From NCBI GenBank assembly GCA_965263035.1, contig OZ253580.1, positions 896,001 to 960,000 of the forward strand: 64,000 bases of DNA, in the 5' to 3' direction. Of the stretch, positions 12,881-51,432 are shown piece by piece. Under the pieces are notes generated by a model. That model had not been told where the DNA came from. It saw only the letters and a program-made list of their open reading frames with translations, and did not search any database. Each line of letters begins with the position of its first letter. Within the stretch, counting starts at the first letter, position 1. The position numbers and the translations under genes were made by a program. This DNA is from Acidobacteriota bacterium. GTDB lineage: Bacteria; Acidobacteriota; UBA6911; RPQK01; JAJDTT01.

Positions 12881-14281
12881 ATGTCTGAAGTTCGAAGCGA
12901 GCCGGGATCGTTCCGTGATCGTCATGGGCGCGTCTTCTACAAGGACGGCGCCGTCTACCGCGCCCTCAGCCGTCATTCCCTTACGGCTTGGCACACACTG
13001 GAGAAGACCCGGTTCTTTCCGCGATTGGTGGAGGAGGGTCTGATCGTCAAGACCGGTCTGGCGGACGCCGCCGCGTTGGCGTCCTCGGCAGCGCCGCCCG
13101 GAGACTGGGCGGGAATTTTGCGCCACGAGACCATCCCCTACGTCTCCTATCCCTACGAGTGGTCGTTCCCAATGCTGCAGGACGCCGCCCTGCTGCAACT
13201 GCGCCTCATTTCCGAGTCTCTGGCCGAAGGGATGATCCTCAAGGACGCCACCCCCTACAACGTTCAATGGAACGGGGTCCGGCCCGTCTTCATTGACATT
13301 CCGTCCTTTGAGCCGTGGCCCCCGGGCGGAGCCTGGACCGGATACCGGCAGTTCTGCAGCCTCTACTTGTACCCGCTGATGTTGCAGGCTTATCGAAATC
13401 TGCCGTTCCAACCGTGGCTGAGAGGAAGTCTGGACGGAATCTCTCCCCGGGAATGCCGCGACCTGCTTTCGAGCCGGGACCTGTTCCGCTCCGGAGTCCT
13501 GCTCCACGTCTGGCTCCAGAGCCGTTTCCAGGAAAAATACGGCGCCCGTCGGGAGAGCGCCAGCCAGCTTCTCAAGGACGCCGGGTTCAACCGGAAGGCG
13601 ATTCTCTCCAACGTCGGGCGTCTGACTCGGCTGGTCTCACGACTGAGATGGACGCCTTCCGCCTCCCAGTGGACCGGATACGCCGGGGACAACACCTATT
13701 CCGGGCTCGACCGGGAGGCCAAACGGGAATTCGTTCGCTGGGCGGTGGGTCGAAAGCGATGGAAGATGTCGTGGGACCTGGGGGCCAACACGGGTGACTA
13801 CTCGCGTCTGGCGGCCGCCGGCTCCGATACCGTCCTGGCCATGGATCGAGATTCGGCCTCGGTGGACCTCCTCTACCGGGACCTGCGCCGGGAGGGTCCC
13901 GCCAACATACTGCCACTGGTGGTCAACTTGGCCGACCCCTCACCGTCCCTGGGGTGGCGCTGCTTGGAACGAACCTCCCTGACCGAGCGCGGGTCCCCCG
14001 AGTTGGTCCTCTGCCTCGCTCTGATCCATCACATGGTCATCGACGCCAACATTCCCCTGGCCGAGTTCGTCCAATGGCTCTCGGGGCTGGGTTGCTCTCT
14101 GGTCATCGAATTCGTGCGGCGGGACGACCCCATGGTCAAGATGCTGCTGCGAAACAAGGAAGATCAGTACACCGACTACCGGATGGACTACTTCGAGGAG
14201 TGCCTGGGAAAATGCTTCCGAGTCCACCGGCGCCAGGAGCTTCCCTCCGGGTCCAGAGTCCTCTACTTCGCGGAGGCGTGA
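12881..14281 (+). CDS. NoeA-like SAM-dependent methyltransferase with kinase-like N-terminal half
   Basis: GSFRD, SYPYEW, LKDATPYNVQ, FIDIPSF in the N-terminal half; WDLGANTG SAM motif and LALIHH in the C-terminal half. Confidence 0.85.
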   Translation: MSEVRSEPGSFRDRHGRVFYKDGAVYRALSRHSLTAWHTLEKTRFFPRLVEEGLIVKTGLADAAALASSAAPPGDWAGILRHETIPYVSYPYEWSFPMLQDAALLQLRLISESLAEGMILKDATPYNVQWNGVRPVFIDIPSFEPWPPGGAWTGYRQFCSLYLYPLMLQAYRNLPFQPWLRGSLDGISPRECRDLLSSRDLFRSGVLLHVWLQSRFQEKYGARRESASQLLKDAGFNRKAILSNVGRLTRLVSRLRWTPSASQWTGYAGDNTYSGLDREAKREFVRWAVGRKRWKMSWDLGANTGDYSRLAAAGSDTVLAMDRDSASVDLLYRDLRREGPANILPLVVNLADPSPSLGWRCLERTSLTERGSPELVLCLALIHHMVIDANIPLAEFVQWLSGLGCSLVIEFVRRDDPMVKMLLRNKEDQYTDYRMDYFEECLGKCFRVHRRQELPSGSRVLYFAEA

Positions 14282-14309
14282 CCGGGAAGGGCGATGCCTT
14301 CCAACTCCA
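14165..14309 (+). repeat. Left copy of a 145-bp diverged direct repeat
   Basis: Aligns without gaps to 51288-51432 with 30 mismatches by hand count. Minus strand carries an ogt-like tail LELEGIALPGHASAK* ending at TAG 14265-14263. Confidence 0.9.
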
Positions 14310-14450
14310 GCAGCCGGTCGCTGCGCCTACCGGGCCTTCGCGTATGGCTGGTTCGCCCGGTTTCCGAACACACGACTGGCTTTCGAGTAGCGTGTGAAGG
14401 GAATAGAATGAGGTCAAATCGCCTGTTTCCTCACTGCTCAGGAGTATCCA

Positions 14451-16247
14451 ATGCCAAACCAGTGTCGATTGCCATCCGTCTCGATCCCGCTGACCATCCT
14501 CCTGCTCGCCGGCGCCGCGCTGGCGGCAGGCAATGCACTCCAGGGTGCAAAGGAACCCAGGTCCCAGCCCGAGTATCGCATCAGGACTCAAATCAACCTG
14601 AAGGTTCCCATGCGCGACGGTGTGAATCTGGCGGCCGATGTCTTTCGTCCTGACGCACCCGGAAAATTTCCGACACTGCTCCTGCGCAGCTATCACGGGA
14701 CGCAGGGGTATATGAAGATGGCCCTGTACTTCGCCCGAAGAGGCTATGCAGTGGTCATGGTGGACGTCCGAGGCCGCTACGATTCGGACGGAGAATTCGA
14801 ATTCTACGTGTACGAACCGGAGGACGGCTACGATACCCAGCAGTGGGTGGGGAAACAGAGCTGGTGCAATGGAAAAATCGGCACCTTCGGCCATTCCTAC
14901 AACGGCTTCACCCAGCTGATGCCGGCGCCATTGCAGAGTCCTCATGTCCTGTGCATGATCCCCAGCTCCTGCCAGCAGACCAATTTCGGACATATCTACA
15001 ACGATGGCGTGCTCCAGCTCAACGTCGTGATCACGGCCGGTCTCTTCGGTTCCGGAAGAGTGCTGCAGCCCACCATCGCCGGTGTCTACTCGGGAGATCC
15101 CTTTCTCGACTATGACGAGATCTATCGGCGATTGCCGTTGATTACGGCCCTGGATGACATTGTGGATTTACCCAACGTCAAGAAATGGATTGAGCATTCC
15201 ACCTATGACGAGTACTGGAAGGCGCACGGAATCAGGGACAAGTACCATCTCATCCAGGCCCCTGCCTATTTCGTCAACGGCTGGTACGGCAATCTCCTGC
15301 TCGAAGGCTGGAGAAACCTGAATGGGTTTCGCCAACACGGAGGATCTGCCGCCGCCCGGGAGGGAACCAAGATCATCGTCGGGCCCTGGACCCACGCGGT
15401 AAATCGCGTGGACCCGGACTGGCCCGTAGACTTCGGCGAGAACGCAACCTACGACAGTCTTGATTTTCATGTGCGCTGGTATGACTTCTGGCTCAAGGGG
15501 ATGGAAAACGGCATTGGGGAGCAGCCGCCCATCAAGATCTTCGTGATGGGAGCGAACCAGTGGCGCTTCGAGAATGAATGGCCTCTGGAGCGAACCCGAT
15601 TCACGCCGTTCTATCTGCACAGTGGCGGAAAGGCCAATTCGCTCCGCGGTGACGGATCTCTGACGACCGAAGAACCCGGCCTGAATCCTCCTGCGGACGG
15701 CTTTGGCTACGATCCGAAGAATCCCGTCCCCACCTTGGGCGGGCGGATCTCCACGAATCCCGAGCTCCAGGGCCCGCAGGATCGGCAAGCGATACAGGAG
15801 CGTCAGGATATTCTCGTCTACACCTCGGAACCCCTGGAGGAGGACCTGGAAGTCACCGGGCCAGTGGAGCTCAAATTGTATGCCGCGTCGAGTGCCGTGG
15901 ACACGGACTTCACCGCAGCCCTGACCGATGTCTACCCGGACGGTCGAGCCATCCTCATCTGTGAGGGAATCCGGAGAGCCAGCTTTCGGGAGTCACTGGA
16001 GCATCCGACTCCGATCGAACCTGGTAAGGTCTATGAATACGCCATCAGCCTGTGGGAGACCAGCAACGTCTTCAAGGCGGGTCACCGGATTCGCGTCGAG
16101 GTCTCGAGCAGTGACTTTCCCCGCTATGCCCGGAATCTGAACACAGGGAACCGGTCCGGGATGAGTGCCGAGATGTTGAAGGCCCGCCAGACCATCCATC
16201 ACAGCGGGCGGTATCCGTCCCGTCTGGTGCTGCCGGTTATTCCGTAA
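14451..16247 (+). CDS. CocE/NonD-family hydrolase, secreted
   Basis: VPMRDGVNLAAD, DVRGRYDSDG, GHSYNG nucleophile, GPWTH, SSSDFPRYARNLNTG. The usual GWYD reads GWYG. Confidence 0.9.
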   Translation: MPNQCRLPSVSIPLTILLLAGAALAAGNALQGAKEPRSQPEYRIRTQINLKVPMRDGVNLAADVFRPDAPGKFPTLLLRSYHGTQGYMKMALYFARRGYAVVMVDVRGRYDSDGEFEFYVYEPEDGYDTQQWVGKQSWCNGKIGTFGHSYNGFTQLMPAPLQSPHVLCMIPSSCQQTNFGHIYNDGVLQLNVVITAGLFGSGRVLQPTIAGVYSGDPFLDYDEIYRRLPLITALDDIVDLPNVKKWIEHSTYDEYWKAHGIRDKYHLIQAPAYFVNGWYGNLLLEGWRNLNGFRQHGGSAAAREGTKIIVGPWTHAVNRVDPDWPVDFGENATYDSLDFHVRWYDFWLKGMENGIGEQPPIKIFVMGANQWRFENEWPLERTRFTPFYLHSGGKANSLRGDGSLTTEEPGLNPPADGFGYDPKNPVPTLGGRISTNPELQGPQDRQAIQERQDILVYTSEPLEEDLEVTGPVELKLYAASSAVDTDFTAALTDVYPDGRAILICEGIRRASFRESLEHPTPIEPGKVYEYAISLWETSNVFKAGHRIRVEVSSSDFPRYARNLNTGNRSGMSAEMLKARQTIHHSGRYPSRLVLPVIP

Positions 16248-16304
16248 GGCCGGTCTCCTGCCGAGAGGCGGTGAATATCCGCGGCTTCCGCCTCTTTGGC
16301 TTGG

Positions 16305-16463
16305 CAGCCCGTGGCAAAAGTCGTCACGGCATTCGACTGTCCCTGCATCGTGCGCGGACTGCGTTGCTATCGGCTCACATACTCCCGGTATGCTCCCTCA
16401 TCGCGCCTTGTCCGGCGGGCGCAGGAACGGTCTCGGTGCTCGCGGGATTTTCACCACGGACTG
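16305..16463 (+). mobile_element. MITE copy 1 (159 bp)
   Basis: Ends CAGCCCGTGGCAAAAGTC ... TTTTCACCACGGACTG; flanks TTGG/TTAG; abuts the TAA of the symporter. Confidence 0.9.
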
Positions 16464-17906
16464 TTAGCGGACGGCAGGGCTGAAATGCGATTGCTCCCTG
16501 CCTTCCCAGCGGCTGCCCACCACCAGCACGACCAGTGAAACGAGCACCCCGACCAGGACCGGATCCATAAACCCCCAGACAAAGAAGCTGGTTCCTGCTT
16601 TGAGCTCCCGGGGACTTAGGATCTGACACAGGATGACAGCCACGCCGCTGATGGTCATGGACGCCAGCACTGTGCGGCCCTTTCTGCGCATGGACGGAAA
16701 CAGGAGGATCGCAATCAGGACAGGTGCAAGTGAGCCGCCGACAATACGGCCCCCGACCAGGAAAAGCTCCATGAGAAAGGGAATGTAGTAATAGGTGACG
16801 CAGGCCAAGACCGAGGTCAAGAGGATGCTGACGCGTGAGATCCAGAGCATCCTGCCGGAACCGGCATCCGGATCGATGAACCGCTGATAGATGTCGACCG
16901 TGACGTTGGATCCCATGGTGCTGATGGTTGAACTCAAGGTGGACATGTTGGCGCTCATGAGGGACACAAAGATGATGCTTCCAAGGACGGGGCCGGCCAC
17001 TTCGTTGGTCAGGTTGATAAAAACCTGATCGGCCTCCACCTCTTTCCCGAAGAAGGCGATCCCGGTCAATCCCAACAGGGCGGGAGTGATGTACCAGAAA
17101 ACACAGACGATCCCCCCGTAGATGAAACCGCGGCGCGCCGCTTCGCGACTGCGAGCGGAAAACGCTCTCTGGGCCAGAGTCTGGTAACCGCTGGCCAGAA
17201 AAAATGCCACTGAAAACCATCCCATGATCTCAAGAGCTTCGAAGTTTCCGGTCAGCGAAAAAAGGGTCGGATCGTCCACCTTCGCAAACACCCCACCAAG
17301 GCCACCGGCACCCTGAATTGAGAATATGAGCAGCAGGCCCGTACCCAGCACAATGATGAAGAACTGGATCGTGTCGGTGACAAGGACGGCCCACATTCCA
17401 CCGAGCGTGACATAGAGCACGGTCACGAAGTAGGTTAGAATCAGAGCCTGGAAAATGCTGATTCCGAGTGCGGTAGAGGCCACGAGTGCGGTCACTCCGA
17501 TGGTCCCTGCGGTAGCCGCGAAATCGCGTAGCATTGCCAGTATCAAGGCCACGACGCGATGAGTCGGACCGAAGAAACGTTCCAGGATCTGGGGGGTCGT
17601 GATGACCTGGAGTTTCCACATCCGGGGGACAAGATAGATCCCGGCCCAAAGGGTTCCAATTCCCACAGCGCCCATGTGCCAGTAGCCGCTCAAACCGAAG
17701 CTCTTCCCAAAGCCGGTCACCGTGATCAGGGTAACGCCGTTGATCCACGTGGCTGCCACCGAACACCCGATCAGAAAGGGTCCGACGCCCCGGCCGGCGA
17801 CGGTCATGTCTTCATAGGTCGTGACGCGCTTTCGGGCGCTCCAAACTCCAATACCGATGACCACGACGAGGTAGACGGCGACCAGGGGCCAGAGAATTTC
17901 GTTCAT
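16464..17906 (-). CDS. Sodium:solute symporter
   Basis: VAGR, SVAATW, LGGMWAVLVTDTIQF, QRAFSARS, SANMSTLSS; highly hydrophobic. ATG 17906 overlaps the upstream TGA. Confidence 0.92.
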   Translation of the reverse strand: MNEILWPLVAVYLVVVIGIGVWSARKRVTTYEDMTVAGRGVGPFLIGCSVAATWINGVTLITVTGFGKSFGLSGYWHMGAVGIGTLWAGIYLVPRMWKLQVITTPQILERFFGPTHRVVALILAMLRDFAATAGTIGVTALVASTALGISIFQALILTYFVTVLYVTLGGMWAVLVTDTIQFFIIVLGTGLLLIFSIQGAGGLGGVFAKVDDPTLFSLTGNFEALEIMGWFSVAFFLASGYQTLAQRAFSARSREAARRGFIYGGIVCVFWYITPALLGLTGIAFFGKEVEADQVFINLTNEVAGPVLGSIIFVSLMSANMSTLSSTISTMGSNVTVDIYQRFIDPDAGSGRMLWISRVSILLTSVLACVTYYYIPFLMELFLVGGRIVGGSLAPVLIAILLFPSMRRKGRTVLASMTISGVAVILCQILSPRELKAGTSFFVWGFMDPVLVGVLVSLVVLVVGSRWEGREQSHFSPAVR

Positions 17907-18067
17907 GGGGAGGAAAATCGAAAAAGTCCCACCCACAAGAGAAAGAAGAGACCGACCGTGAGGAAAATAACTACGAAACCGATCAGGGCGCTTTGCCAGG
18001 AGGGTTCATTCTGATCGAGTTGAGTCCAATCTTCGAAGGAGTGTTGGTCGTTTCCGGGATGGTCCAT
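17903..18067 (-). CDS. 54-aa membrane peptide coupled to the symporter
   Basis: MDHPGNDQHSFEDWTQLDQNEPSWQSALIGFVVIFLTVGLFFLLWVGLFRFSSP*: acidic N-terminus plus one helix; ATGA overlap with the symporter start. Confidence 0.65.
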   Translation of the reverse strand: MDHPGNDQHSFEDWTQLDQNEPSWQSALIGFVVIFLTVGLFFLLWVGLFRFSSP

Positions 18068-18159
18068 AGAGTGAGCTACATCATGGGTGTCAAATTCACT
18101 TTGAGATCTTCTCGCACTCCGCGGCCTGCACAGGAACCGTCGCGTCGGCAACGCTCAGT

Positions 18160-18300
18160 TGCCGCATCGACCGTCTCTCCGACAAGCTCGACCCCGATCC
18201 CGGGACCGTGGGCAGCGACACGAAACCGTTGACGACTCCGGGGAGGCCGTCCCTCATGATATCGTGTTCCGGCATCACCAGACAGCTCTTGCGAAACCAG
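18160..18300 (-). pseudogene. Frameshifted C-terminal relic of a mandelate racemase/enolase-superfamily gene
   Basis: HDIMRDGLPGVVNGFVSLPT in one frame continues as GPGIGVELVGE in another, matching the typical G..lP..PGlGvel ending. Confidence 0.5.
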
Positions 18301-20028
18301 GTGTCGGAAAAAGTCGATCCCATCCTTTTTGAGGTGATCCGCGCCGCTCTGGTCGAGGCGACCGAAGAGATGTCGGTCTCCCTGCAACGGACCGCATATT
18401 CGACCAATATCAAGACCCGGCTCGATTATTCCTGTGCCTTTGTGGACCGCAGAGGAAGAATGGTGGCCCAGGCTTTCTGCCAGCCTGCTCACCTGGTGAC
18501 GATCGGCAGGCTGGTGCCGCGGGCCGTGGCCGAGTATGGAGCGGAGAACCTCAACCCCGGCGACATGCTTGTGGTGAACGATCCCCATCGGCAGGCCAGT
18601 CACCTCAACGACATTTTTCTGGTCGCCCCTTTTTTTCACGCTGGAGAACTCTTGGGTTACGTTACGAATACCTGCCACCACGTCGACGTCGGAGGAGGGG
18701 CTCCGGCCAGTATCGGAGCTTTCCGGGAGATCTACCAGGAAGGGCTCATTCTGCCCGTGGTCAAGCTGGTCTCCCGGGAAGAAGTCGATCCCGAAATCTG
18801 GAAGATGGTGTTGGCGAATGTGCGGGCGGCACGGGAGGTGTCCGGTGACCTGCGGGCACAGATCGCGGCCAACAAGATGGGCATGCGCCGCTTGGCGGCT
18901 CTGGTGGAACGCTATGGAATCGAGCAGCTCAAACTCTATATGGACAGGCTGCTTGAATACACGGAGCAGCGCACGCGCAGCGAATTGGAGAAGCTGCCAC
19001 GGGGAAGCTACGAGGCCGAAGGATGGCTGGACGACGACGGGATCACCGACCAGCCGGTGCATTTGAAGGCGCGGGCGACCCTGGACGGAGAAACCATCAC
19101 CTTTGACTTCACCGGCTCGGACCAGCAGCGCTGGGCACCCATGAACAGCAATTTGACTCAGACCTTTACGGCCTGTGTCTACGTGTTGAAATGCCTGGTG
19201 GATCCGGACATTCCGGTCAACGACGGTTTTTACCAGCCGATCCGGGTGATCGCCCCGAAAGGTTCGGTCGTGAACTCCCGGCATCCGGCAGCCATCGTAG
19301 GCGGCTGGGAAGTCTCAGTGCGCCTTTGCGAGATTCTATTCCAGGCGCTCTCCCAAGTTCTGCCCAATGCGGTTCCGGCTGGAACCAAGGGCATGATGTG
19401 CCAGGTCGGATTCGGGGGTAGAGATCCGAAAAGCGGCGAATACTACACCTATTACGAGAGTCTGGCGGGAGGATACGGCGGCCGCGTTGGTTCGGACGGG
19501 CCGGACGCCGTGCAAACCCACATGCAGAACACCCAGAACGCCCCCATCGAGGAGACGGAGCTCAACTACCCGGTTCGCATTACACGTTACAGCCTGATCC
19601 CTGATTCGGAGGGCCCGGGCCAGTTCCGGGGCGGCCTGGGGCTGTGTCGCGAATATCTCTTTCCCGACCACAAAGCGGTCTTCACCTCGCTCTCCGACCG
19701 GGCCAGGTTCGCGCCACACGGACTTTTCGGGGGAGAGGAAGGCAAACTGGCTCGCTATCTCGTGATTTCCGATGGGCAGGAACGGAAATTCTCATCAAAA
19801 GCCACGGTGCACCTTGCAGAGGGAGAAACCGCCCGCATCGAGACCTGTGGAGGTGGGGGCTACGGACCTCCCCTGGCCCGCGACGCGGAACTCGTCCTGC
19901 GGGATGTCAGGGAGGGGAAGATCAGCCGGCAGCGAGCCAGGGACCGATACGGAGTCGCGATCGCCCCTGACGGCTCGATTGAACCGGCTGAAACGGATCA
20001 GTTGCGGTCGTGTCGCGGGTCCCCTTGA
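18301..20028 (+). CDS. Hydantoinase B / 5-oxoprolinase subunit B
   Basis: DPILFEVI, RTAYSTNIK..LDYSCA, NDP..SHLND, HHVDVGG, DSEGPGQFRGG, TCGGGGYG. Start placed at GTG 18301. Confidence 0.92.
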   Translation: MSEKVDPILFEVIRAALVEATEEMSVSLQRTAYSTNIKTRLDYSCAFVDRRGRMVAQAFCQPAHLVTIGRLVPRAVAEYGAENLNPGDMLVVNDPHRQASHLNDIFLVAPFFHAGELLGYVTNTCHHVDVGGGAPASIGAFREIYQEGLILPVVKLVSREEVDPEIWKMVLANVRAAREVSGDLRAQIAANKMGMRRLAALVERYGIEQLKLYMDRLLEYTEQRTRSELEKLPRGSYEAEGWLDDDGITDQPVHLKARATLDGETITFDFTGSDQQRWAPMNSNLTQTFTACVYVLKCLVDPDIPVNDGFYQPIRVIAPKGSVVNSRHPAAIVGGWEVSVRLCEILFQALSQVLPNAVPAGTKGMMCQVGFGGRDPKSGEYYTYYESLAGGYGGRVGSDGPDAVQTHMQNTQNAPIEETELNYPVRITRYSLIPDSEGPGQFRGGLGLCREYLFPDHKAVFTSLSDRARFAPHGLFGGEEGKLARYLVISDGQERKFSSKATVHLAEGETARIETCGGGGYGPPLARDAELVLRDVREGKISRQRARDRYGVAIAPDGSIEPAETDQLRSCRGSP

Positions 20029-20146
20029 ACGAGTCGAATTACAGGTGACCAGATCGGAGTGGGATCTCTCTCCCATCCTGAAGAGCTTCTCTTGTCGCAG
20101 CCTCCGCTCTTGAGAGATCAGCCCGGGGCACTCATCGATCCTGGAG

Positions 20147-21172
20147 GTGACGGTGCGTATCAGGAACAGCTCGTTTTTGAGCATAGTCCTGGCTGCTTTC
20201 CTGCTCCCGTGCCTCGATTGTCGAGATTCCGAAGAATTGAGACCGTCCACCTTGGAGCAAGTGCAACCCTCCACTCAGGACGGCAATTCCTCAGACCTTT
20301 CCCTGATTGCTTTCGACACCGGCATCTTGAGAGGTCACTTCCGCTTCGGGCACGGGGGGAAACCGGGGAGGAGTGATTTTCCGGGTGTGGGGCAATGCAT
20401 CTTTGCGCCGTTGAACGTTTCCCTGGTGAATGCGACACGCCCCAATGCTTTGCTGATGCCGGAATGGATCCTCAGGCCCGGCGGGCCCAGGGATGTCACA
20501 CCGTGGCGGCTCGCCAGTTCAGTCAAACCGGAGCCGATCCCGGATGGAGTTCGTCTCTCCTACCCCGATGAAGAGCTGGCAGACCAGGGTTTGCGTGTAA
20601 CGCTGGAGTACCGGGTCGTGGATGACGTGATTTTCCTGGATGGCCACATCGAAGCCATCCGCCGGCAAGATGATCTGGAACTGCTTTTTGCTTCCTACCT
20701 TCCCAACAGGCTCAATGCCACATATGTACCCTCCCGGTCGGAGAGTGGGATTTCGTGGCAACCGGTCACCCGGGGTGAGCCCTGGAAGAGTTCTTATTTC
20801 ATTTCCTCCTCGCCGGAGACCCGCCGCTGGCGTCGCGACGGGCGTGTGGCGGATGCCAAGGAAGTAGACTGGAGCATGGCTTTTGATCCGGACTGGTTCT
20901 TCGCTGACCCCATTCTGGTCGGCATTGAGGACTCCAGCGGTTTGACGGCTGTCCATTTCGTGGATGACAACTGCACCGCTCTGGTGGGCCAACCCCACGA
21001 CCATGACACGGCCCATGACTTCACTTGGGGCTGGTCGGTCTTGGAATCGGGGCAAAAGGTCCATGCCCGCGCCGCCGTGTGGATTACTCAGCTGCAGGGA
21101 ACCCATGATCAGAGAATGGCGCAGGTCTACGAAAAATATCGGGAGTGGAGACACTCCTGGACGGGGAGCTGA
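20147..21172 (+). CDS. Hypothetical exported protein
   Basis: 341-aa ORF with an N-terminal hydrophobic stretch followed by Cys; no family recognised. Confidence 0.55.
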   Translation: MTVRIRNSSFLSIVLAAFLLPCLDCRDSEELRPSTLEQVQPSTQDGNSSDLSLIAFDTGILRGHFRFGHGGKPGRSDFPGVGQCIFAPLNVSLVNATRPNALLMPEWILRPGGPRDVTPWRLASSVKPEPIPDGVRLSYPDEELADQGLRVTLEYRVVDDVIFLDGHIEAIRRQDDLELLFASYLPNRLNATYVPSRSESGISWQPVTRGEPWKSSYFISSSPETRRWRRDGRVADAKEVDWSMAFDPDWFFADPILVGIEDSSGLTAVHFVDDNCTALVGQPHDHDTAHDFTWGWSVLESGQKVHARAAVWITQLQGTHDQRMAQVYEKYREWRHSWTGS

Positions 21173-21251
21173 CCAGGCTTCACCGTTTTTTCTGGTGCGA
21201 TTTCTTGCCACCTGCACAACAGAATGACAAGGCATACGCCTGCCGTTGCAT

Positions 21252-22949
21252 TCAGCGGCTGCCCATCGATTCCCCCTCGATGATGGTCAGAATCTGGCCG
21301 GCTTTGATTTTTTCCAGGGTTTCCCGCCCGCCGCCGGGCCAGTTGATCTCGATTCGATCCACCTGCCGACTCTTCCCCAGGCCGAAATGCAAACGAAGGT
21401 CGTTGTGGGACAAGTAGTTTCCGCCGCTCCTTATTCGACGATTCCGGACCCCTTCGCCCGTCACCACCCTAACTGTGGCCCCAATTGCTGAACGGTTCCC
21501 GGGTCGGCCAACCAGACGAAGCTGGAGCCATTGTCGACGATTTCCTCCATTGTTTCGCAAGAGGGCAGGAGTGTCGTCAATGGCGAGGACGACTAAATCG
21601 AGGTCCCCATCATTGTCATAGTCACAAGCCGCAGCCCCACGGCTCGATTTGGGAGACAGACGCGTGAGTCCGGCCGCCCCGGAAACATCCTCAAACTGGA
21701 AGCCCCCAGCACCGCGAAACAAAAGATCCTGTTGCTTGTAGCTGAGACTCTCGATTTCCGAGGCCTGCGGATAGAGGTGCCCGTTGGCCATGAACAGATC
21801 CAAGGCGCCGTCGTTGTCAAAGTCACCCGAAATGGCGGCCCAGCCCAGGTAGGGGATTGTGATTTTTCCCAGTCTGGCTTGAAACGATATCTCTTCGAAA
21901 TTGAAGTTCCCCAAACTTCGAAACAAGGGGTAGTAGTCTTCTGAGAACGTCGTCACAAATAAATCGGTGAATCCGTCATCTCCTATGTCTCCCATAGCCA
22001 CGCCCATGTTGGCCTGAGCCCTGCCTTCGCGGTTGTAGGCGACGCCCGCCAGCAGAGCAAGCTCCTGGAAGGTCCCGTCCTTCCGGTTCTGATAGAGATA
22101 ATTCTGTCCGGCGTCGTTGGTGACGAAAAGCTCAGGAAACCCGTCATTGTCCAGGTCCTCGAAGACAGCAGAAAACCCATACCCCAATTGCTTGTCCTCG
22201 ACGCCGGCCGCTGCCGTAACCTCACGAAAGGTCCCGTCCCCCAGGTTCCGGTAAAGCACATCGGGAGCTCCCTTCAGGCCCAGGGGGCCACACATGACCG
22301 GCAGCCCGCGGTAATTGCAGGACGCTCCGCCGGTGGGAGGATTTTGCAGATCGAAATCGACATAGCGGCTAACATAAAGATCGACCCAGCCGTCGCGATC
22401 ATAATCGCCGAAGGTCGCTCCGGTACTCCACCATCTGCCTCCGCCAACGTTGGCGCTTCCGGCTACATTAGTGAATGTTCCATTGCCATTATTTCGATAA
22501 AGGAGGTCCTCACCGTAATTGGTGACGAACAGGTCAATAAAACCGTCGTTGTCGTAATCGGCGGCCACCACCCCGTTCCCAAGGCCCGATCCAAGAATTC
22601 CGGCCTTTTGAGTGACCTCGGTAAAGGTGCCGTCTGCGTTGTTTTGGAACAGGAAATTGGGAGCCCGGGAAGCATCCGTCTCACCGTTGAAGAGATTCTC
22701 GGGTGAGATCCCATTGATAATGTAAAGGTCCATCCACCCGTCGTTGTTGTAGTCGATCCAGGCACAACCACTACCGTTTCCCTCCACAATGAACTTTTTT
22801 TCAATAGTTCCACAAGTGGTGGTTACATTCAGTCCGGCTGCCTCGGTCACGTCTTCGAAACTCACTTGGAAGTCCTGTGAAACGGCTCGGACGCTGGATC
22901 CTGAGAGCAGCAGAACTCCGGTGAGCAGTATCCGCAATGACAAGGTCAT
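21252..22949 (-). CDS. CRTAC1-family protein (FG-GAP/VCBS repeats plus ASPIC/UnbV)
   Basis: Repeated DYNNDG/DYDNDG motifs, NRSAIGA, LHFGLG, WPGG. Confidence 0.92.
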   Translation of the reverse strand: MTLSLRILLTGVLLLSGSSVRAVSQDFQVSFEDVTEAAGLNVTTTCGTIEKKFIVEGNGSGCAWIDYNNDGWMDLYIINGISPENLFNGETDASRAPNFLFQNNADGTFTEVTQKAGILGSGLGNGVVAADYDNDGFIDLFVTNYGEDLLYRNNGNGTFTNVAGSANVGGGRWWSTGATFGDYDRDGWVDLYVSRYVDFDLQNPPTGGASCNYRGLPVMCGPLGLKGAPDVLYRNLGDGTFREVTAAAGVEDKQLGYGFSAVFEDLDNDGFPELFVTNDAGQNYLYQNRKDGTFQELALLAGVAYNREGRAQANMGVAMGDIGDDGFTDLFVTTFSEDYYPLFRSLGNFNFEEISFQARLGKITIPYLGWAAISGDFDNDGALDLFMANGHLYPQASEIESLSYKQQDLLFRGAGGFQFEDVSGAAGLTRLSPKSSRGAAACDYDNDGDLDLVVLAIDDTPALLRNNGGNRRQWLQLRLVGRPGNRSAIGATVRVVTGEGVRNRRIRSGGNYLSHNDLRLHFGLGKSRQVDRIEINWPGGGRETLEKIKAGQILTIIEGESMGSR

Positions 22950-22955
22950 GTCTAT

Positions 22956-25900
22956 TTGCATTCCCTACGGGTTTCCTGTGCAGAAACACCGTTTCAATTT
23001 TTTCGCAAGTGGAGCCGGGGGCACTTGACCGCTCGTCGGCTTAATAGTATCAATCTCGTAACCTTGTTGAGCCCCAGGTCCTCTCTTTTATTTATTTTTC
23101 CGCTTTGTCTTTTCTGGGTCGTGAGCTGCGGGCACCCGGTTCCGCCCTACACGCCTGCAGAGGCTCTGACCACCTTCACCATCGAAGAGGGCTTTCGAAT
23201 CGAGGTCTTCGCCTCCGAACCGATGATTCTCGACCCTGTAGCGATGGAATTTGATGAGCATGGTCGGGTGTTCGTAGTCGAGATGCCCGGCTATCCTTTA
23301 AACGTCGGGGCGACCGGGCGCGTGAAGCTGTTGGAAGACACCAACCAGGACGGTTTCCCCGATCAGGCTACGGTATTTGCAGACGGACTCGTGCTTCCCA
23401 CGGGGGTTCTGCGATGGAAGGAAGGTATTCTGGTTACCGATCCGCCCAACGTCTGGTACTTCGAAGACACGGACGGCGACAACCGTGCCGATCTCCGGCA
23501 GGCCGTGCTGACCGGATTCGCCCTCTCCAACCCTCAGCACACGGTCAGCAGTCCTCTTTATGGACTGGACAACTGGATCCATCTCGCCCACGAGCCGGCG
23601 ATCAAGACGATTGTCTTCAAAGACAGGTTCGGTGATCCAGGTTCCAAGAAGAGGTTTCCCAACCGCAACGACGGGCCCCAACTGGACAGTTCCACCGGCA
23701 ATCTCCGCTTCCGCCCGGACACTTTCGAGTTGGAGGCTCTTTCCGGCATCTCTCAATTCGGACTGAGCTTCGATCGATGGGGACACCAATTCCTGGTCAC
23801 CAGCGGTCGACATATACGCCAGGAGGTCATCGCGGCCGCTTACCTGAGGCGCAACCCGTCCTTGCGCGCCGCTTCCCCGGTAGCAGACATTTCAGATCAC
23901 ACCACTCGCGTCTATCCCATCACCCAGAACCCGGAGCACCGAATTCTCACAGGTCCGGGCAGCTTTACCTCTGCTTGTGGGATTTCGATCTATTTGGGAG
24001 GACTCTTCCCCCCTCCATTCAGTCAAGTTTCTTTTGTAGCCGAACCGGCCCACAACCTGGTTCACTGCGATGTTCTGAAAGAAAACGGGGTCACCCTGCA
24101 GGCCAGTCGAAGTGGCGAAGAGACGGAATTCCTGGCCTCCACGGACAGTTGGTTCCGACCGGTCAATTTGTATACCGGACCGGACGGAGCTCTTTACGTC
24201 GTGGACTACTATCGCCGGATCGTTGAGCACCCGGAGTGGATGTCCGACGAGTTCCACAGCCAGGACACCGGGCCTCGGATTCTTTACGAAGGCAGTCAAC
24301 AGGGCCGAATCTACCGCATTACTCCCGCCTCCGAGGAGCCTGTTCCTTTGGTGCGGAACTTCCCGCTCGGTAAGGCCTCGGATCCGGACTTGGTCGAATA
24401 TTTGAACCATCCAAACCTGTGGTGGAGGATGCACGCCCAGCGACTCCTCGTTGGCCGTCAGAACGTACACGCAATCGACCGTCTGATGGAGATCGCCACA
24501 GAAGGTCGCAGGCCCGAATCGCGGGTGCATGCTTTGTGGACACTGGAAGGCCTGGGAAAACTGGACGCCTCTCTCATCCGGAAAGCCCTGGGAGATCCGG
24601 AACCAGGCGTCCGGGAGAACGCGATCCGGCTGGCAGAGTCGCGATTGGCGACGGCTCCCGGGCTGGCGGACAAGTTGCTGGCATTGACCGGGGATGCTCA
24701 TCCCAGAGTGCGCTTCCAACTCCTTTGCACGCTGGGGTGGGTGGACTCGCCCGGAGCCCGCAATGCTCGCCGCCAATTGCTGATGCGGGACATTGACGAC
24801 GAGTGGATGCAAATGGCGGCTTTCAGCGCCTCTGACGTCCGGCCGCTCAATCTGTTCGACACTGGCGTGACCGAGTTTGGTGACGCAGCGTCAAAGGAGA
24901 GAATCGCATTCTTTCGCCGGATCGCTGCCATGGTCGCCGCCGGTTCCGGCCCGTCGGGGGTCAGACAACTCTTGCGCAAGGTAGCGAACGCCAAGAAACG
25001 AGGATCCGATTGGTGGCGTGCGGCCGCTCTGGAGGGGCTGGCCCAGGGAATCGGGCAAGGCTCGAAAAGCGTCACGGAAGGGCTTTCATCCAACCGACTC
25101 CTCGCCTTGTACCAGGCATCGGCCCCACCGGTGCAAAGGGCAACGCTGCAGTTGCTGGAGCTCATGGAGAAACCCCTCGGTCCAGCTCCGGAACCCCTCA
25201 TAAGGGTCCTCCTGGACAGAATCGAAGATCGAGCTGCAGACCCTGCTCTGAGAGCCGGCTCGGTACGCCTTCTGGCCCTCTTCGGTGTGAACTCGAGATT
25301 CGCCCTGCTGAGCTCACTGCTCGATCCACAGGAGCCCCCAGAGGTGCAGACCGCAGCGGTGCGCGCTCTGGGGCAGATCGAGGGGATCGAGTCTGGCCGA
25401 TTGTTCATCTCCAAATGGAGGGAACTGACTCCTCCGGTCCGTCTGGCGGCCACCGTAGCTCTTCTATCCAGGCCGGAGCACGTAGAGCTGTTGGTGACTG
25501 GGATCGAAAATGATGAGGTCCCATTTTGGACGATCAATCAAGGTCACAAAATTCGCCTTGTAATGCAGCAAGATGCCTCCATACGGTTCCGCGTCCATGA
25601 GCTTTTGCGCAAGCTGGAGGGGGAACGACTCCGGATTCTGGAACGCTACCGGGCGGCCCTGAGTCTTTCCGGGGATGCAGTCCAGGGAGCTCAGGTGTTC
25701 AAGAAAAGCTGTGACAAGTGCCATCAGGTCGAGGGGGTGGGAGGCCGCTTCGGCCCTGATCTTGGGACGGTTCGGAATCGGTCGCGGGAGGAGTTGCTCA
25801 CCAACATCATGTTGCCCAGTCAATCGATCTCGGACAACTATGAGCTGTACGTGGTCGAGTTGAACAATCGGGTTCTACAGGAGGGAGTCATCGGCTCGCA

Positions 25901-26090
25901 AACTCCTGTGTCCGTGACCTTGCTGCGTGAAGATGGCACTGAGGCCGTGATTGCCAGAGAGAATATTCGACGGATGTATTCGTCGACCGTTTCGGGAATG
26001 CCGGAAGGCTTGGAGGAGGAGATCAGCGTCCAGGAAATGGCCCATCTGCTGAGTTTTCTCACCACCTCGGCGGTTCCCCCGATTCAATAG
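22956..26090 (+). CDS. PVC-type membrane-bound dehydrogenase with HEAT repeats and cytochrome c
   Basis: FASEPMILDPVAMEFDE, EDTNQDG, WFRPVN..GPDGALYVVD, HALWTLEGLG, CDKCH, GPDL, SGMPEGLE. True start probably further downstream. Confidence 0.9.
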   Translation: MHSLRVSCAETPFQFFRKWSRGHLTARRLNSINLVTLLSPRSSLLFIFPLCLFWVVSCGHPVPPYTPAEALTTFTIEEGFRIEVFASEPMILDPVAMEFDEHGRVFVVEMPGYPLNVGATGRVKLLEDTNQDGFPDQATVFADGLVLPTGVLRWKEGILVTDPPNVWYFEDTDGDNRADLRQAVLTGFALSNPQHTVSSPLYGLDNWIHLAHEPAIKTIVFKDRFGDPGSKKRFPNRNDGPQLDSSTGNLRFRPDTFELEALSGISQFGLSFDRWGHQFLVTSGRHIRQEVIAAAYLRRNPSLRAASPVADISDHTTRVYPITQNPEHRILTGPGSFTSACGISIYLGGLFPPPFSQVSFVAEPAHNLVHCDVLKENGVTLQASRSGEETEFLASTDSWFRPVNLYTGPDGALYVVDYYRRIVEHPEWMSDEFHSQDTGPRILYEGSQQGRIYRITPASEEPVPLVRNFPLGKASDPDLVEYLNHPNLWWRMHAQRLLVGRQNVHAIDRLMEIATEGRRPESRVHALWTLEGLGKLDASLIRKALGDPEPGVRENAIRLAESRLATAPGLADKLLALTGDAHPRVRFQLLCTLGWVDSPGARNARRQLLMRDIDDEWMQMAAFSASDVRPLNLFDTGVTEFGDAASKERIAFFRRIAAMVAAGSGPSGVRQLLRKVANAKKRGSDWWRAAALEGLAQGIGQGSKSVTEGLSSNRLLALYQASAPPVQRATLQLLELMEKPLGPAPEPLIRVLLDRIEDRAADPALRAGSVRLLALFGVNSRFALLSSLLDPQEPPEVQTAAVRALGQIEGIESGRLFISKWRELTPPVRLAATVALLSRPEHVELLVTGIENDEVPFWTINQGHKIRLVMQQDASIRFRVHELLRKLEGERLRILERYRAALSLSGDAVQGAQVFKKSCDKCHQVEGVGGRFGPDLGTVRNRSREELLTNIMLPSQSISDNYELYVVELNNRVLQEGVIGSQTPVSVTLLREDGTEAVIARENIRRMYSSTVSGMPEGLEEEISVQEMAHLLSFLTTSAVPPIQ

Positions 26091-26280
26091 TCCCCCGACT
26101 GGAAGCACGGTTCAGGAGCCGCTTCCATGCGGCCGACGGGAAGAGGCAGCCATAGAGTGGGAGCGGCCTCCACGCCGTGAATCTGTTCGGACCACGGAGA
26201 GTCCTCCCCCATTGGGAAACTCCACGCCCGGGCCATGGAAGGCCCTCCCACACTCAGGAAGGATGCAAGAGGATCGTTTA

Positions 26281-27822
26281 ATGCCAAGTGTGAGACCGTC
26301 CGGACACATCAGAAGACCCTCGGTGGAAGAAATTCGATCTCTGGCCGCCAGGGAATACATCAACCTGTCCGAACAAGAGGCTGCCGACCTCGGGTCCCTC
26401 ATGAATGGAATGCTAGTGGACGTGGGTCGCCTCGATGATCTGCCTGTTGCCGGGTTGCAGGTCAGATACCAGGATCGCGACAGAGGCTACCGCCCGTCAC
26501 CGGAGGAGGACCCCTACAACGTCTTCATTCGAAAATGCCGGGTGAAGGGTGCGCCCAAGGGGAGGCTGGCCGGAAAGACTGTTGGACTCAAAGACAACAT
26601 AAGGGTGGCAGGTGTTCCCATGACCAACGGCTCGCGCCTCCTTGCCGAGTACGTCCCCAGCGTCGACGCGACGGTTACCGAGCGCCTTTTGGATGCCGGT
26701 GCGACCATTGTCGGCAAGTTGAACATGGATAGTTTTGGCATGGGCGGCACCAACGAGACCAGCGACTTCGGCCCTGTCCGCAACCCCCACAACATCGAGT
26801 ACTCCGCCGGCGGTTCTTCGGGCGGCAGCGGGGCGGCCCTGGCGGCCGGTGAGGTCGATATCGCCTTAGGCGTCGACGAGGGAGGCAGTGCGCGTATCCC
26901 GGCCTCCTGGTGTGGAGTCGTAAGCATCAAGCCCACCCATGGACTGGTTCCAGCCTTCGGTCTTTCCTATCTTGACCACACCCTGGATGAGATCTGCCCC
27001 ATGGCCAGGTCGGTACAGGAGGTGGCGCTGACCCTGGAAGCCATAGCGGGAGAGGATCCCAGAGACCCGCAGTGGGTTCGAGGGCCGATTCAAGTCGAGA
27101 GCTACAGCAAGGCCCTCCAAGAGGATGTCTCCGGTCTTCGGCTGGGGGTCATCAAAGAGTCGATGGAATGGGATCAATCCGAGCATGAGGTCAGCCAGGC
27201 GGTATGGGAAGCAGCGAGAAAACTGCAGGCCTGCGGCGCCTCGGTCGAAGAAGTATCCATCCCCTGGTGGCCGGACGCCTGGCCGGTTCTGTTGTCGATC
27301 CTCGGACATTCGCTGTCGGCCATGGTCGAGTCGAATCTGGAAGGCTATTGGAGGGGGGGCAGGTGCGACCCGGATTGGCAGGAGGCTTTCGGCAAGGCCC
27401 GCAGAGCCGGCAGCGACGGATTCCCTCCCCTCCTCAAAGTCTGGATGGTCATGGGCAAATATCTCAGACGCGAGTATTGCAGCGTCTATTTCTCCAAAGC
27501 CCAGAATCTGAGGCATGCCATGACGCAGAAGCTGGACGAAGTGTTTGAAGCCTGTGACGTCCTGGTCACTCCCACCACGCCCCTGAAGGCCGTCAAGTTG
27601 GCTCAGTCGAGCCGGGCAGGATCCTGGGAAGGGAGAGGTTCGATTGAAATGAACCGCAACACCTGCCCTCTGAACGTCACGGGCTATCCGGCTTTGTCGG
27701 TTCCCTGTGGTTTTGGCGACAATGGCCTGCCCATAGGACTGCAGCTCGTCGCCCGGCGTTTTCGCGAGAGCTTGCTCTTTCGGGTGGCTTCTCAGGTTGA
27801 GCGAGGAGACTCCGATCGCTGA
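26281..27822 (+). CDS. Amidase-signature family amidase
   Basis: GLKDNI, AGGSSGGS, GVDEGGSARIPASWCG, GLPIGLQL. Confidence 0.92.
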   Translation: MPSVRPSGHIRRPSVEEIRSLAAREYINLSEQEAADLGSLMNGMLVDVGRLDDLPVAGLQVRYQDRDRGYRPSPEEDPYNVFIRKCRVKGAPKGRLAGKTVGLKDNIRVAGVPMTNGSRLLAEYVPSVDATVTERLLDAGATIVGKLNMDSFGMGGTNETSDFGPVRNPHNIEYSAGGSSGGSGAALAAGEVDIALGVDEGGSARIPASWCGVVSIKPTHGLVPAFGLSYLDHTLDEICPMARSVQEVALTLEAIAGEDPRDPQWVRGPIQVESYSKALQEDVSGLRLGVIKESMEWDQSEHEVSQAVWEAARKLQACGASVEEVSIPWWPDAWPVLLSILGHSLSAMVESNLEGYWRGGRCDPDWQEAFGKARRAGSDGFPPLLKVWMVMGKYLRREYCSVYFSKAQNLRHAMTQKLDEVFEACDVLVTPTTPLKAVKLAQSSRAGSWEGRGSIEMNRNTCPLNVTGYPALSVPCGFGDNGLPIGLQLVARRFRESLLFRVASQVERGDSDR

Positions 27823-27930
27823 CCCTCGCGGCTCCGTTTAGGGACCACCGAAATCAAGGCGGAGCCCCAAGTGTGAGCGCGGGGAGAAACACTGCGCCCG
27901 ACGATCCGGGATCAGACAATCCTGTCTTAA

Positions 27931-28088
27931 CAGTCCGTGGTGAAAGTCCCGCGAGCACCGAGACCGTTCCTGCGCCCGCCGGACAAGGCGCGATGAGGGA
28001 GCATACCGGGAGTATGTGACCGAATCGCAACGCAGTCCGCCGGGATGCAGGGACGGTCGAATGCCGTGACGACTTTTGCCACGGGCTG
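27931..28088 (-). mobile_element. MITE copy 2 (158 bp)
   Basis: Reverse orientation to copy 1; flanked by TTAA on both sides; abuts the TAA of the symporter. Confidence 0.92.
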
Positions 28089-29495: not shown

Positions 29496-29522
29496 CTACG
29501 TCACCACCCGTGTGATCTTCGG

Positions 29523-29690
29523 TCACCCACCGAGGGCCTTCGAACATAGGAAGAGCCACGCTACACCCAGCAACTGCAGGATCAGGAATGTGAGGATGGG
29601 GCTCAAGCGTGGGACCCGAGCCTCGTCGGCGGCTTTCATCAGTTCCTCGGGTTCCGAGCCGGTTTCGAAGTCACTATCAGGTGAAATCAT
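29523..29690 (-). CDS. 55-aa membrane peptide upstream of the symporter
   Basis: Not in the ORF track. GAGG RBS, then MISPDSDFETGSEPEELMKAADEARVPRLSPILTFLILQLLGVAWLFLCSKALGG*. Confidence 0.65.
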   Translation of the reverse strand: MISPDSDFETGSEPEELMKAADEARVPRLSPILTFLILQLLGVAWLFLCSKALGG

Positions 29691-29809
29691 AGTTTCCTCT
29701 CGACCGATTCCGCAGCGGCTCTACCCATTTCGCCGGATTGTACATCGGAACTCCCGGCAAAGGCCGGAGGTCACGAAGGTGGGAAACCTGGAACGGGGCG
29801 TGATTCTAG

Positions 29810-29970
29810 CAGTCCGTGGTGAAAGTCCCGCGAGCACCGAAACCGGTCCTGCGCCCGCCGGACAAGGCGCAACGGAGGGAGCATGCCGGGAGTATGTGAG
29901 CCGAGTCGCAACGCAGTCCGCGCACGATGCAGGGACGGTCGAATGCCGTGACGACTTTTGCCACGGACTG
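29810..29970 (-). mobile_element. MITE copy 3 (161 bp)
   Basis: Flanks CTAG/CCAG; lies 6 bp past the GWxTD gene stop. Confidence 0.9.
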
Positions 29971-29976
29971 CCAGAG

Positions 29977-33296: not shown

Positions 33297-33305
33297 GTCT
33301 ATTGA

Positions 33306-33465
33306 CAGTCCGTGGTGAAAGTCCCGCGAGCACCGAGACCGTTCCTGTGCCCGCCGGACCAGGCGCAACGGAGGGAGCATACCGGGAGTATGTGAGCCGA
33401 TAGCAACGCAGTCCGCGCACGATGCTGGGACGGTCGAATGCCGTGACGACTTTTGCCGCGGGCTG
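33306..33465 (-). mobile_element. MITE copy 4 (160 bp)
   Basis: Flanked by TTGA on both sides; lies 9 bp past the TPR gene stop. Confidence 0.92.
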
Positions 33466-33552
33466 TTGAGGTGGTCCCAATTTTTGATCGGCTGTTTCGG
33501 TGTATTCCAAGGTCAGAGCAGGGCACTGGGACGGCCGGGATACGGCGTCGAT

Positions 33553-38157: not shown

Positions 38158-38181
38158 CTTGTTTCCAATATTCTCCCGGGA

Positions 38182-48232: not shown

Positions 48233-48266
48233 GGAGGGTCCTCCTTCAACTGTGACTTGCTCTTAA

Positions 48267-48426
48267 CAGTCCGTGGTGAAAGTCCCACGCAGCACCGAGA
48301 CCGGGGCTGCGCCCGCCGGACAAGGCGCTCTGAGGAAGCATACCGGGAGTATGTGACCGAGGAGCAACGCAGTCCGCGCACGATGCAGACCCGGTCAAAT
48401 GCCGTGACGACTTTTGCCACGGGCTG
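48267..48426 (-). mobile_element. MITE copy 5 (160 bp, most diverged)
   Basis: Flanked by TTAA on both sides; 34 bp upstream of the CocE start. Confidence 0.92.
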
Positions 48427-48566
48427 TTAACCCAAGCTGGCCTGCCGAGCTCCCGCCGTAATTCCTATAACCGATGACTAACAAAGGAGATAAGATCTTC
48501 CGGTGGTCAGCACGGGAGTCGGCCTGATTGACTGCCAGTTGGCTGCCTTGGTAGATTCTTGCTGCA

Positions 48567-49709: not shown

Positions 49710-49839
49710 ACGTCAGCTCACCATTGGGGAAACAGGCAGACTCAGGTCTTGCCGTTCTGCTATTTCAGGACTTGAATACACTGTTAATGGGGCTGAGACG
49801 AAGTCTCTTTTGTAACTGCTTACGCTCGAGGAGAATCCA

Positions 49840-51222
49840 ATGGCGAGTCTGACCAAGCTTGGCATTTGTATATGTCTATTGGGCCTGACGGTGATCCCGT
49901 GGGTCCGGGGCTCCAACCTCAAAGCCGGAGTGGCCAAGGTTGACATTACTCCGGCTCCGGGAAAATACATGCTCGGTTCCGGGACCACGCTGGCAACCGG
50001 AGCCAATGATCCACTGTACGCACGCGTCCTGGTGCTGGAAGTTGATCAAACACGGCTGGCGCTGATCACAGTCGATCTCTGCCGGGTCTTTCAGGCACCC
50101 TTGATGGAGCGTCTACGCCAACAAGTAAAGGAATCAAGCGGTATCTCCTTTGTGCTCATGGTCGCGACCCACACTCACTCCGCTCCCATTATTCCCATCA
50201 ATGAGAATCATCCCTTAACCGGCATGGTGGCTTGGCAGGAGGACGCCGTCACTAAAATCGCAAGAGCCGTTGAAAAAGCTCACCGGCAGGCGGCAGAGGC
50301 ATGGGTAGGTACAGGTTACGGAGTGGCCTACATCGGCCACAACCGGAGAAAACTGAACCCGGACGGCACCGTGACTATGATGTTCAGGAACCCGACCAAG
50401 ATTCCTACGGCCCCCTTCGATCCCACGGTGGCAGTCCTGCGCATAGACACCGAAAACCGAAAGCCATTGGCCATTCTCGTGAACTACGCCTGCCACCCTG
50501 TGGTGGTGATGGCAAACCTCAAGCAGTATTCGGCTGATTTTCCTGGAGTCATGTGCAATACCGTGGAAGAGGCTTTCGGCCCTCAGACCATGGCCTTCTT
50601 CCTGAACGGCGGCGCCGGCGACATCGACACCTATTACACGGGTGTGCCTCTTGAAGAAGACCCGGTCGCAAGAATGGAGTGGAGTGGAGAGACTCTAGGC
50701 AAGGAAGCCGTTCGCGTGGCCAAGAAGATCGAAACCGAACCGTCCCCTGAGGCGAGTCTCGATTTCTCGGAGGATTGGCTGACCTTCGGTTTTCGCTGGG
50801 ACCTGGAGAAGTACATGAAAGCCTTTGATAAGAGTGTGGAACCCGAACTCCGCGAGTACTATCTGCCCGAGATCAAGCCGGAAAAGCAAGTTCCCGTCAC
50901 GACCGTTCTCGTCAACAAGAAAATTGCATTCATGGGGATGCCGGGCGAGCCCTTTATTGAGTTCCAGATGAACTGGCGCGAGCGGTCTCCTGTCTCCGAC
51001 AGTTTCTTCCTGGGGTACGCGAACGGCTTTTTCAGCTACTTTCCCACCATTCGTGCGGCGACCGAAGGCGGCCACGGAGCAAAGAATATCTGGGCTCGGA
51101 TCGAACCGGGCGCCGGTGAACGGATCGTGGATCATTGCATCATTCGAATCTATGAAATGTTGGGGCGTTTGACCGATGACCCGGCGGTGCCGGCGCCTGC
51201 GCAGGACGTTGAGGAGCAATAG
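49840..51222 (+). CDS. Neutral/alkaline ceramidase-like protein, secreted
   Basis: AGVAKVDITP, DPLYARVLVL, ATHTHSAP, NYACHP, SADFPG, PGEPF. Confidence 0.88.
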   Translation: MASLTKLGICICLLGLTVIPWVRGSNLKAGVAKVDITPAPGKYMLGSGTTLATGANDPLYARVLVLEVDQTRLALITVDLCRVFQAPLMERLRQQVKESSGISFVLMVATHTHSAPIIPINENHPLTGMVAWQEDAVTKIARAVEKAHRQAAEAWVGTGYGVAYIGHNRRKLNPDGTVTMMFRNPTKIPTAPFDPTVAVLRIDTENRKPLAILVNYACHPVVVMANLKQYSADFPGVMCNTVEEAFGPQTMAFFLNGGAGDIDTYYTGVPLEEDPVARMEWSGETLGKEAVRVAKKIETEPSPEASLDFSEDWLTFGFRWDLEKYMKAFDKSVEPELREYYLPEIKPEKQVPVTTVLVNKKIAFMGMPGEPFIEFQMNWRERSPVSDSFFLGYANGFFSYFPTIRAATEGGHGAKNIWARIEPGAGERIVDHCIIRIYEMLGRLTDDPAVPAPAQDVEEQ

Positions 51223-51287
51223 CACCGACCTGCGGGCATGCTCGGCACCGTTTCCGTTGCCAGCAGGCGCTGCTCCCGTAGCAGCTC

Positions 51288-51432
51288 CAGTACACCGACT
51301 ATTGGATGCCGGATTTCGAAGAGTGCCAGGGGAAGTCCTTCCGAGACCATCGGGGACGGGAGTTGGCCTCCGGATCCAGGGTCCTCTACCTGACGGTGGC
51401 GTGACCCGGAACGGTGACGCCTTCCAACTCCA
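51288..51432 (+). repeat. Right copy of the 145-bp diverged direct repeat
   Basis: Plus strand reads QYTDYWMPDFEECQGKSFRDHRGRELASGSRVLYLTVA*, a relic of the methyltransferase tail QYTDYRMDYFEECLGKCFRVHRRQELPSGSRVLYFAEA*. Confidence 0.9.

Follow-up and report, generated by a model that had tools for sequence, protein, structure and literature searches.

A duplicated junction of two convergent genes as the probable scar of an old insertion in an Acidobacteriota genus

We analysed a 64,000-nucleotide stretch of the genome of an Acidobacteriota bacterium (the window; assembly GCA_965263035.1, contig OZ253580.1, positions 896,001–960,000). The genome is called G000 below, and coordinates are those of the window unless another genome is named. 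The stretch contains a 37-kb block of transporter and hydrolase genes that is bordered on each side by a copy of the same 145-bp junction, formed by the 3′ ends of two convergent genes, the methyltransferase-like gene A and ogt. We think it moderately likely that these two copies are the scars of one old duplicative insertion between gene A and ogt at a time when the two genes overlapped, followed by vertical descent. The block is old and fixed in the genus, and nothing suggests that it is mobile at present.

The left (attL-like) copy at 14165–14309 and the right (attR-like) copy at 51288–51432 align directly and without gaps at an offset of 37,123 bp, with 115 of 145 positions identical. A repeat search of the window also returned the junction as a two-copy family of 79% identity, bearing out the repeat reported in the initial annotation. 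In a BLAST comparison of the left copy and its flanks with the whole genome, a single contig of 6,198,070 bases, the only matches were the query itself and the right copy (E 1e-29); the earlier worry that the segment might lie at many unrelated loci is settled by its presence at just two places in 6.2 Mb. Both edges are sharp. Beyond them identity falls to the random level (2–9 of 20 positions per window), and comparison of the adjoining 65 and 141 nt with the neighbouring gene bodies revealed no extension of the repeat, the scores being reached by 215 and 238 of 500 shuffled sequences, respectively. A promoter and terminator scan of 14100–14500 gave no signal.

At each border one gene end is working and the other is dead. 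The left copy holds the working 3′ end of gene A (12881–14281, plus strand, an open reading frame (ORF) of 466 aa), overlapped by 19 nt on the minus strand by a dead ogt end of 15 codons and a stop (14263–14310). The right copy holds the working end of ogt (51386–51907, minus strand), which encodes a methylated-DNA-protein-cysteine methyltransferase (PF01035, PF02870, TIGR00589), together with 38 codons and the stop of the gene A frame on the plus strand (51288–51404). Translation of the minus strand gives LELEGIALPGHASAK and a stop for the dead ogt end and LELEGVTVPGHATVR and a stop for the working one, while in the gene A relic 26 of 38 amino acids are identical to those of the working gene, with 20 codons differing, 8 of them synonymously. 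These translations agree with the assignment of working and dead ends made initially. Both stop codons are equivalently placed in the two copies, from which it follows, as had been proposed, that the duplicated sequence contains a 19-nt tail-to-tail overlap of the two genes (14263–14281 and 51386–51404).

Seven congeners carry gene A and ogt on one contig and were judged (G001–G007); in an eighth, G008, the genes are on two contigs. All seven have both relics, a gene A end of 44–121 nt beside ogt and an ogt end beside gene A. Between the end of gene A and that of ogt lie 37.1 kb in G000, 37.3 kb in G004, 38.9 kb in G006, 40.4 kb in G005 and 59.5 kb in G007, and there are short versions of 9.8 kb (G001), 4.3 kb (G002) and 4.0 kb (G003). 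The interior genes are collinear at 82–96% protein identity, with the full set of 20 in G006 and G007 and 19 of them in G004 and G005; the flanking genes are similar, at 92–97% (mqnC), 91–95% (xerD) and 84–92% (ogt). Mapping of contigs from other assemblies, which covered 12500–32499 of the window, provided two that span the left junction, one without differences (X11 record 8, 12500–16331) and one with 18 (X1 record 2, 13284–16205). The recurrence of the architecture in seven other genomes, together with these bridging contigs, excludes the misassembly of mixed strains that the initial annotation had named as a danger.

A quick FastTree analysis of the junction copies, in which some rows contain non-homologous sequence in their left part, grouped the eight right-hand copies as one clade apart from the left-hand copies (local support 0.91). 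The alignment shows that the right-hand relics have derived states in common and have been shortened by different deletions, the relic of G000 being the longest. The presence of relics in all seven congeners, the single right-hand clade and the differing deletions together point to one event before the species split. The decay of the 117-nt gene A relic supplies an approximate age. When polarised by seven orthologous left copies, 22 of its 26 substitutions fall on the path to the relic, distributed 8, 6 and 8 over codon positions 1, 2 and 3. This flat distribution indicates neutral decay of a dead gene end, contrary to the earlier suggestion that the 8 synonymous changes among 20 codons hint at coding divergence in a related lineage. 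After correction, the relic path amounts to about 0.22 substitutions per site, compared with a synonymous divergence (dS) of 0.24–0.46 between gene A of G000 and that of its congeners, so that the age of the relic is roughly the root-to-tip depth of the genus. On this evidence the event appears to fall at about, or just before, the genus crown, and the divergence of the repeats would need no initially differing copies. A Nei-Gojobori estimate on the 38 codons (synonymous and non-synonymous proportions, pS and pN, of 0.45 and 0.16) was set aside as unreliable, as it is dominated by multi-hit codons and the codon-position counts are flat.

The short intervals do not represent an ancestral state. 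In G002 ~100 nt from the start of the S15 peptidase gene survive and abut the amidase region, and G001 retains scraps of two tetratricopeptide repeat (TPR) genes; these remnants identify the 4–10 kb intervals of G001–G003 as deletion derivatives. In G002 (L036:3911–4147), and at the same place in G003, an 11.7-kb deletion has brought the beginning of the S15 peptidase gene (~33 codons) up against the start region of the amidase gene; the amidase may now use the peptidase start and leader. A change in the other direction is found in G007, where the GWxTD and TPR genes of the block are separated by a 20-kb insert (G007:C2 about 308322–328503; L039). The insert encodes transposases (IS1595, IS110, three DUF772/IS5-like and one DDE group-1) as well as a DNA methylase and an SMC-like ATPase.

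The course of events that we favour would have begun in the ancestry of the genus, with the tails of gene A and ogt overlapping by 19 nt. A DNA segment that carried the junction, or copied it on entry, would then have inserted there, most likely as a circular molecule by a single crossover (of Campbell or att type). Afterwards the junction would have stood on both sides of the insert, with gene A whole at the left and ogt whole at the right, each beside a dead end of the other. Much the same 37-kb complement of transporters and hydrolases as today would already have been on the insert, which would have been inherited vertically from then on, while the dead ends decayed neutrally and three species later deleted most of the block. 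Of the single crossover of a circle restoring one gene at each border that the initial annotation proposed, the duplicated junction and the one working end at each border hold up; the idea of a recent or excisable element does not.

The block itself (14310–51287; 36,978 bp) comprises 20 genes and five copies of an element resembling a miniature inverted-repeat transposable element (MITE). By Pfam the genes encode two S15 peptidases, three SSF sodium:solute symporters, a hydantoinase B, an amidase, an amidohydrolase, two ceramidase-like proteins, a TonB-dependent receptor, two FG-GAP/ASPIC proteins, a DUF7133-cytochrome c protein, a GWxTD protein, three TPR proteins and a PD40 protein; one gene is without assignment. 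The composition is atypical for the host genome, with a GC content of 57.7% inside and 62.1% genome-wide (0.9th percentile among 37-kb windows), in line with the compositional check suggested at the outset. With stops read through, none of the genome's 27 tyrosine-recombinase (PF00589) and five serine-recombinase (PF00239) matches lies between the repeats, and Pfam assigned no recombinase among the 20 interior genes, which agrees with the initial observation that no integrase is present inside. ARAGORN found no tRNA or tmRNA in the window, and Rfam at gathering thresholds gave no match over the same DNA. A dif search of the window likewise gave no match to a 16-nt core with up to three mismatches, although this core may not be that of this phylum.

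Direct repeats at both borders and low GC are what a recent integrative island, still able to excise as a 37,123-bp circle, would present. We nonetheless regard such an island as very improbable and close to refuted. Identity between the repeats is only 79%, and four congeners have the block at a divergence like that of its flanks, three more having deletion remnants of it. There is no recombinase inside. Nor is an empty site, with gene A and ogt adjacent, found in any of the seven congeners, all of which keep both relics and at least part of the block.

The expectation that relatives would show the two genes overlapping by 19 bp at an empty site was not borne out beyond the genus either. In the sister genus and in other families the pair is split between contigs or widely separated; these tallies include one unpublished genome, G016, through its presence/absence rows only. 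A metagenome scan for relatives of gene A gave 45 loci, the best at 61% identity and none from this genus; ogt is absent from beside gene A in these 45 loci and in 11 loci of relatives. Among the genomes and metagenome loci searched, the two genes are thus linked in this genus only. In the nine genus genomes there is no second full-length gene A and no close copy of ogt, the extra matches being short relics for gene A and paralogues elsewhere at 37–45% identity for ogt.

G007 provides a second and younger case of junction copying. Here the junction is duplicated again around a 3.1-kb cargo (G007:C2 about 346075–349196), the duplicated DNA consisting of 254 nt of the gene A end, the ogt relic and 157 nt of downstream DNA, with BLAST identities of 92% and 86%; the second junction copy lies at G007:C2 about 345802–346074. 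The cargo encodes a 611-aa P-loop/TPR protein (L041:318–2153), which matches the candidate defence family PDC-M28B at 3e-30, and a 186-aa ORF. The Pfam match to MqsA_antitoxin belongs to the collinear 186-aa ORF of G005 (L045:4980–5540), not to that of G007. G005 has collinear cargo DNA at 85% identity without the duplication, and its large gene looks broken. In G007 the 3′ third of gene A switches from a G000-like type to that of G002 and G003, as does the left junction (support 0.999; sliding identity), and the duplicated copy begins abruptly inside gene A. The slot directly after gene A measures 0.17 kb in G000 and 1.6–4.5 kb in G004–G007, where it holds small ORFs, some of them toxin-antitoxin-like, with weak Pfam matches. 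The second duplication indicates that insertion with copying of the junction, tied to recombination, has occurred at least twice at this site, which is still prone to recombination, and this repetition favours a one-step mechanism over duplication followed by trimming.

That latter route, in which a tandem duplication of the gene A/ogt pair or its junction in the genus ancestor came to be filled with genes and deletions then cut the inner ogt and gene A back to 46 and 117 nt, is in our judgement unlikely. The interval is certainly prone to insertion and deletion, as the slot of 0.17 to 4.5 kb, the 20-kb insert of G007, rich in insertion sequences, and the deletions in G001–G003 demonstrate, and the interior genes have paralogues elsewhere in the same genome. 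However, at least four events would be required in place of one crossover. Both edges of the repeat are sharp, and the right edge of the left copy (..CTCCA) is identical in five copies (G000, the G007 middle copy, G006, G004 and G001). The block was already complete before the species split, the younger duplication of G007 repeats the one-step pattern, and the nine genus genomes lack the full-length second gene A or close ogt that trimming would start from. The initial annotation had offered an old local duplication that opened an insertion hotspot; of this, the hotspot is supported by the variable slot and the second duplication in G007, and the duplication is the less economical part.

Linear DNA could also have been inserted by illegitimate, or homology-facilitated illegitimate, recombination, with joints staggered by 145 nt in the recipient and the target duplicated without a circle or a recombinase. 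This fits the lack of a recombinase in the block, and a mechanism of the kind is described in PMC3240628. It also has a counterpart in G007, where a left copy and gene A 3′ third of donor-like G002/G003 type (0.999) and an abruptly starting duplicate amount to one homologous and one illegitimate joint. For the old event, by contrast, no microhomology or donor allele can be recovered, and a donor in which the block already lay next to one of the two genes would be required. We consider this route quite unlikely as the origin of the block.

A duplicative insertion by single crossover remains our preferred reading, and several points weigh against it. With no empty site in any genome searched, the ancestral overlap is deduced from the relics only. 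With no recombinase gene or remnant in the block and no copy of the junction found on another replicon, the circular or att-type intermediate is unproven. A multi-step route of duplication, insertion and trimming reaches the same end state. The nearest kin of the interior genes are paralogues in the same genome, there is no visibly foreign donor, and an internal origin of the block would fit as well as a foreign one. That the two genes were once adjacent, that a single step sufficed and where the block came from are matters of inference.

The paralogues bearing on the source of the block are numerous. The closest relatives of the interior genes are often found within the genome, at 57–85% identity (76% for hydantoinase B, 77% for SSF and 85% for a ceramidase-like protein), whereas proteins of the sister genus reach only 41–53%. 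Across G000 (for example at 760–792 kb and 1.65–1.76 Mb) there are 27 S15 peptidase, eight hydantoinase B and nine ceramidase-like matches, clustered with SSF transporters and TonB receptors, and these families represent a large lineage-specific expansion. Within the block, the hydantoinase B/oxoprolinase gene at 18208–20028 has no hydantoinase A partner among its neighbours and is followed by a 341-aa ORF without a family match.

A more general proposal, to which we give rather little credence, is that the gene A/ogt overlap serves as a recurrent docking site that needs no recombinase, one homologous crossover in the gene end copying the junction each time. The incoming DNA would be circular or would form its second joint illegitimately, and cargo could be loaded repeatedly without breaking either of the overlapping genes, as would have happened with the 37-kb catabolic block when the genus arose and later with the defence-like cassette of G007. 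Since the block has no recombinase and its presence does not vary between relatives, we regard the structure as a fossil, left by an integrative event or by a single crossover without a recombinase, and do not count it among live elements.

Gene A is conserved but has no match in Pfam, NCBIfam or PDB sequences. Its homologues number more than 6,000, and some sources label them 'SAM-dependent methyltransferase'; P0001, P0002 and P0004 are among them, at 98% and 88–89% identity, and the orthologues in eight congeners are 88–93% identical. Next to ogt and outside the feature lies xerD (51972–52901, minus strand), a housekeeping tyrosine recombinase gene which scores 382 bits against TIGR02225 (equivalog cut-off 329.6). 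The initial annotation was right to place it directly after ogt and wondered whether this was coincidence; the same housekeeping copy adjoins ogt in all seven congeners, and nothing links it to the event. The longest ORF in the xerD frame (51972–53828; 618 aa) reaches far into murJ (52868–54475), and the XerD match is limited to its last ~309 codons, so the true start of xerD is near 52901.

The MITE-like element is ~165 nt long, with terminal inverted repeats CAGTCCGTGG ... CCACGGGCTG and TTAA-like 4-nt flanking duplications. BLAST gave 188 hits in the genome, 162 of them of at least 140 nt. Six copies lie in the window, at 16296–16467, 27927–28093, 29806–29975, 33302–33470, 48261–48435 and, beyond the block, 56281–56450. 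The element has no Rfam match and is absent from the orthologous sites of congeners, and the copy at 27929–28091 is missing from the contig of a ~99%-identical strain (X1 record 6); on both counts it looks recently active. In the sponge-labelled metagenome run X3, seven of the eight listed contig pieces (about 260–390 nt) match 12500–32499 with 0–3 differences, indicating that a near-identical strain occurs there.

The junction copies allow the acquisition of a 37-kb uptake and hydrolase block that helps to define a genus to be delimited to the base and dated, and they place it between two overlapping genes, neither of which was harmed. In other respects this is an ordinary evolutionary scar, with no new machinery and no current mobility, and it serves as a worked example that direct repeats together with low GC need not mean a live island. 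Just after gene A lies a slot in which congeners exchange small defence-like cargo.

Several known systems resemble this arrangement in part. Campbell-type single crossover, known mainly from laboratory plasmids, integrates a circle that carries a chromosomal segment; this shared segment alone ends up as a direct repeat on the two sides of the insert, its edges sharp and both genes kept whole. The present locus shares the junction copied on both sides, the sharp edges and the intact genes, but no natural circle carrying the junction was found. Genomic islands that sit at the 3′ end of a tRNA or protein gene typically have direct repeats at their borders derived from the end of the target gene, atypical GC and accessory cargo. 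Border repeats taken from target gene ends, atypical GC and accessory cargo are seen here too, but there is no integrase, no tRNA and no presence/absence polymorphism among relatives, and the cargo resembles paralogue families of the host. Xer-exploiting integrative elements (IMEX) insert without an integrase of their own, which recalls an integrase-less insert near a xerD gene. The xerD gene here is, however, a conserved housekeeping gene, and the window has no match to the dif core used, which is perhaps not that of this phylum.

Two further cases come from published accounts. Homology-facilitated illegitimate recombination, as presented in PMC3240628, inserts foreign DNA by one homologous and one illegitimate joint, with small linear DNA in the experiments. 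It would fit the recombinant gene A end and abrupt duplicate of G007, although the mechanism is described for small linear DNA and not for a 37-kb block. Prophage e14 in the icd gene of Escherichia coli K-12, according to PMC13626634, is served by a site-specific recombination system of its own and is excised when the SOS response is induced; a working gene stands at one end and a C-terminal pseudogene fragment (icdC) at the other, the copies being homologous but diverged. Compared with e14 as described there, the present locus has no recombinase, one junction serves two genes, its repeats differ much more from each other and its insert is fixed across a genus. In both, the repeat at one border holds the working 3′ end of a gene and the other border holds a dead fragment of that gene, and e14 in icd is the closest described case.

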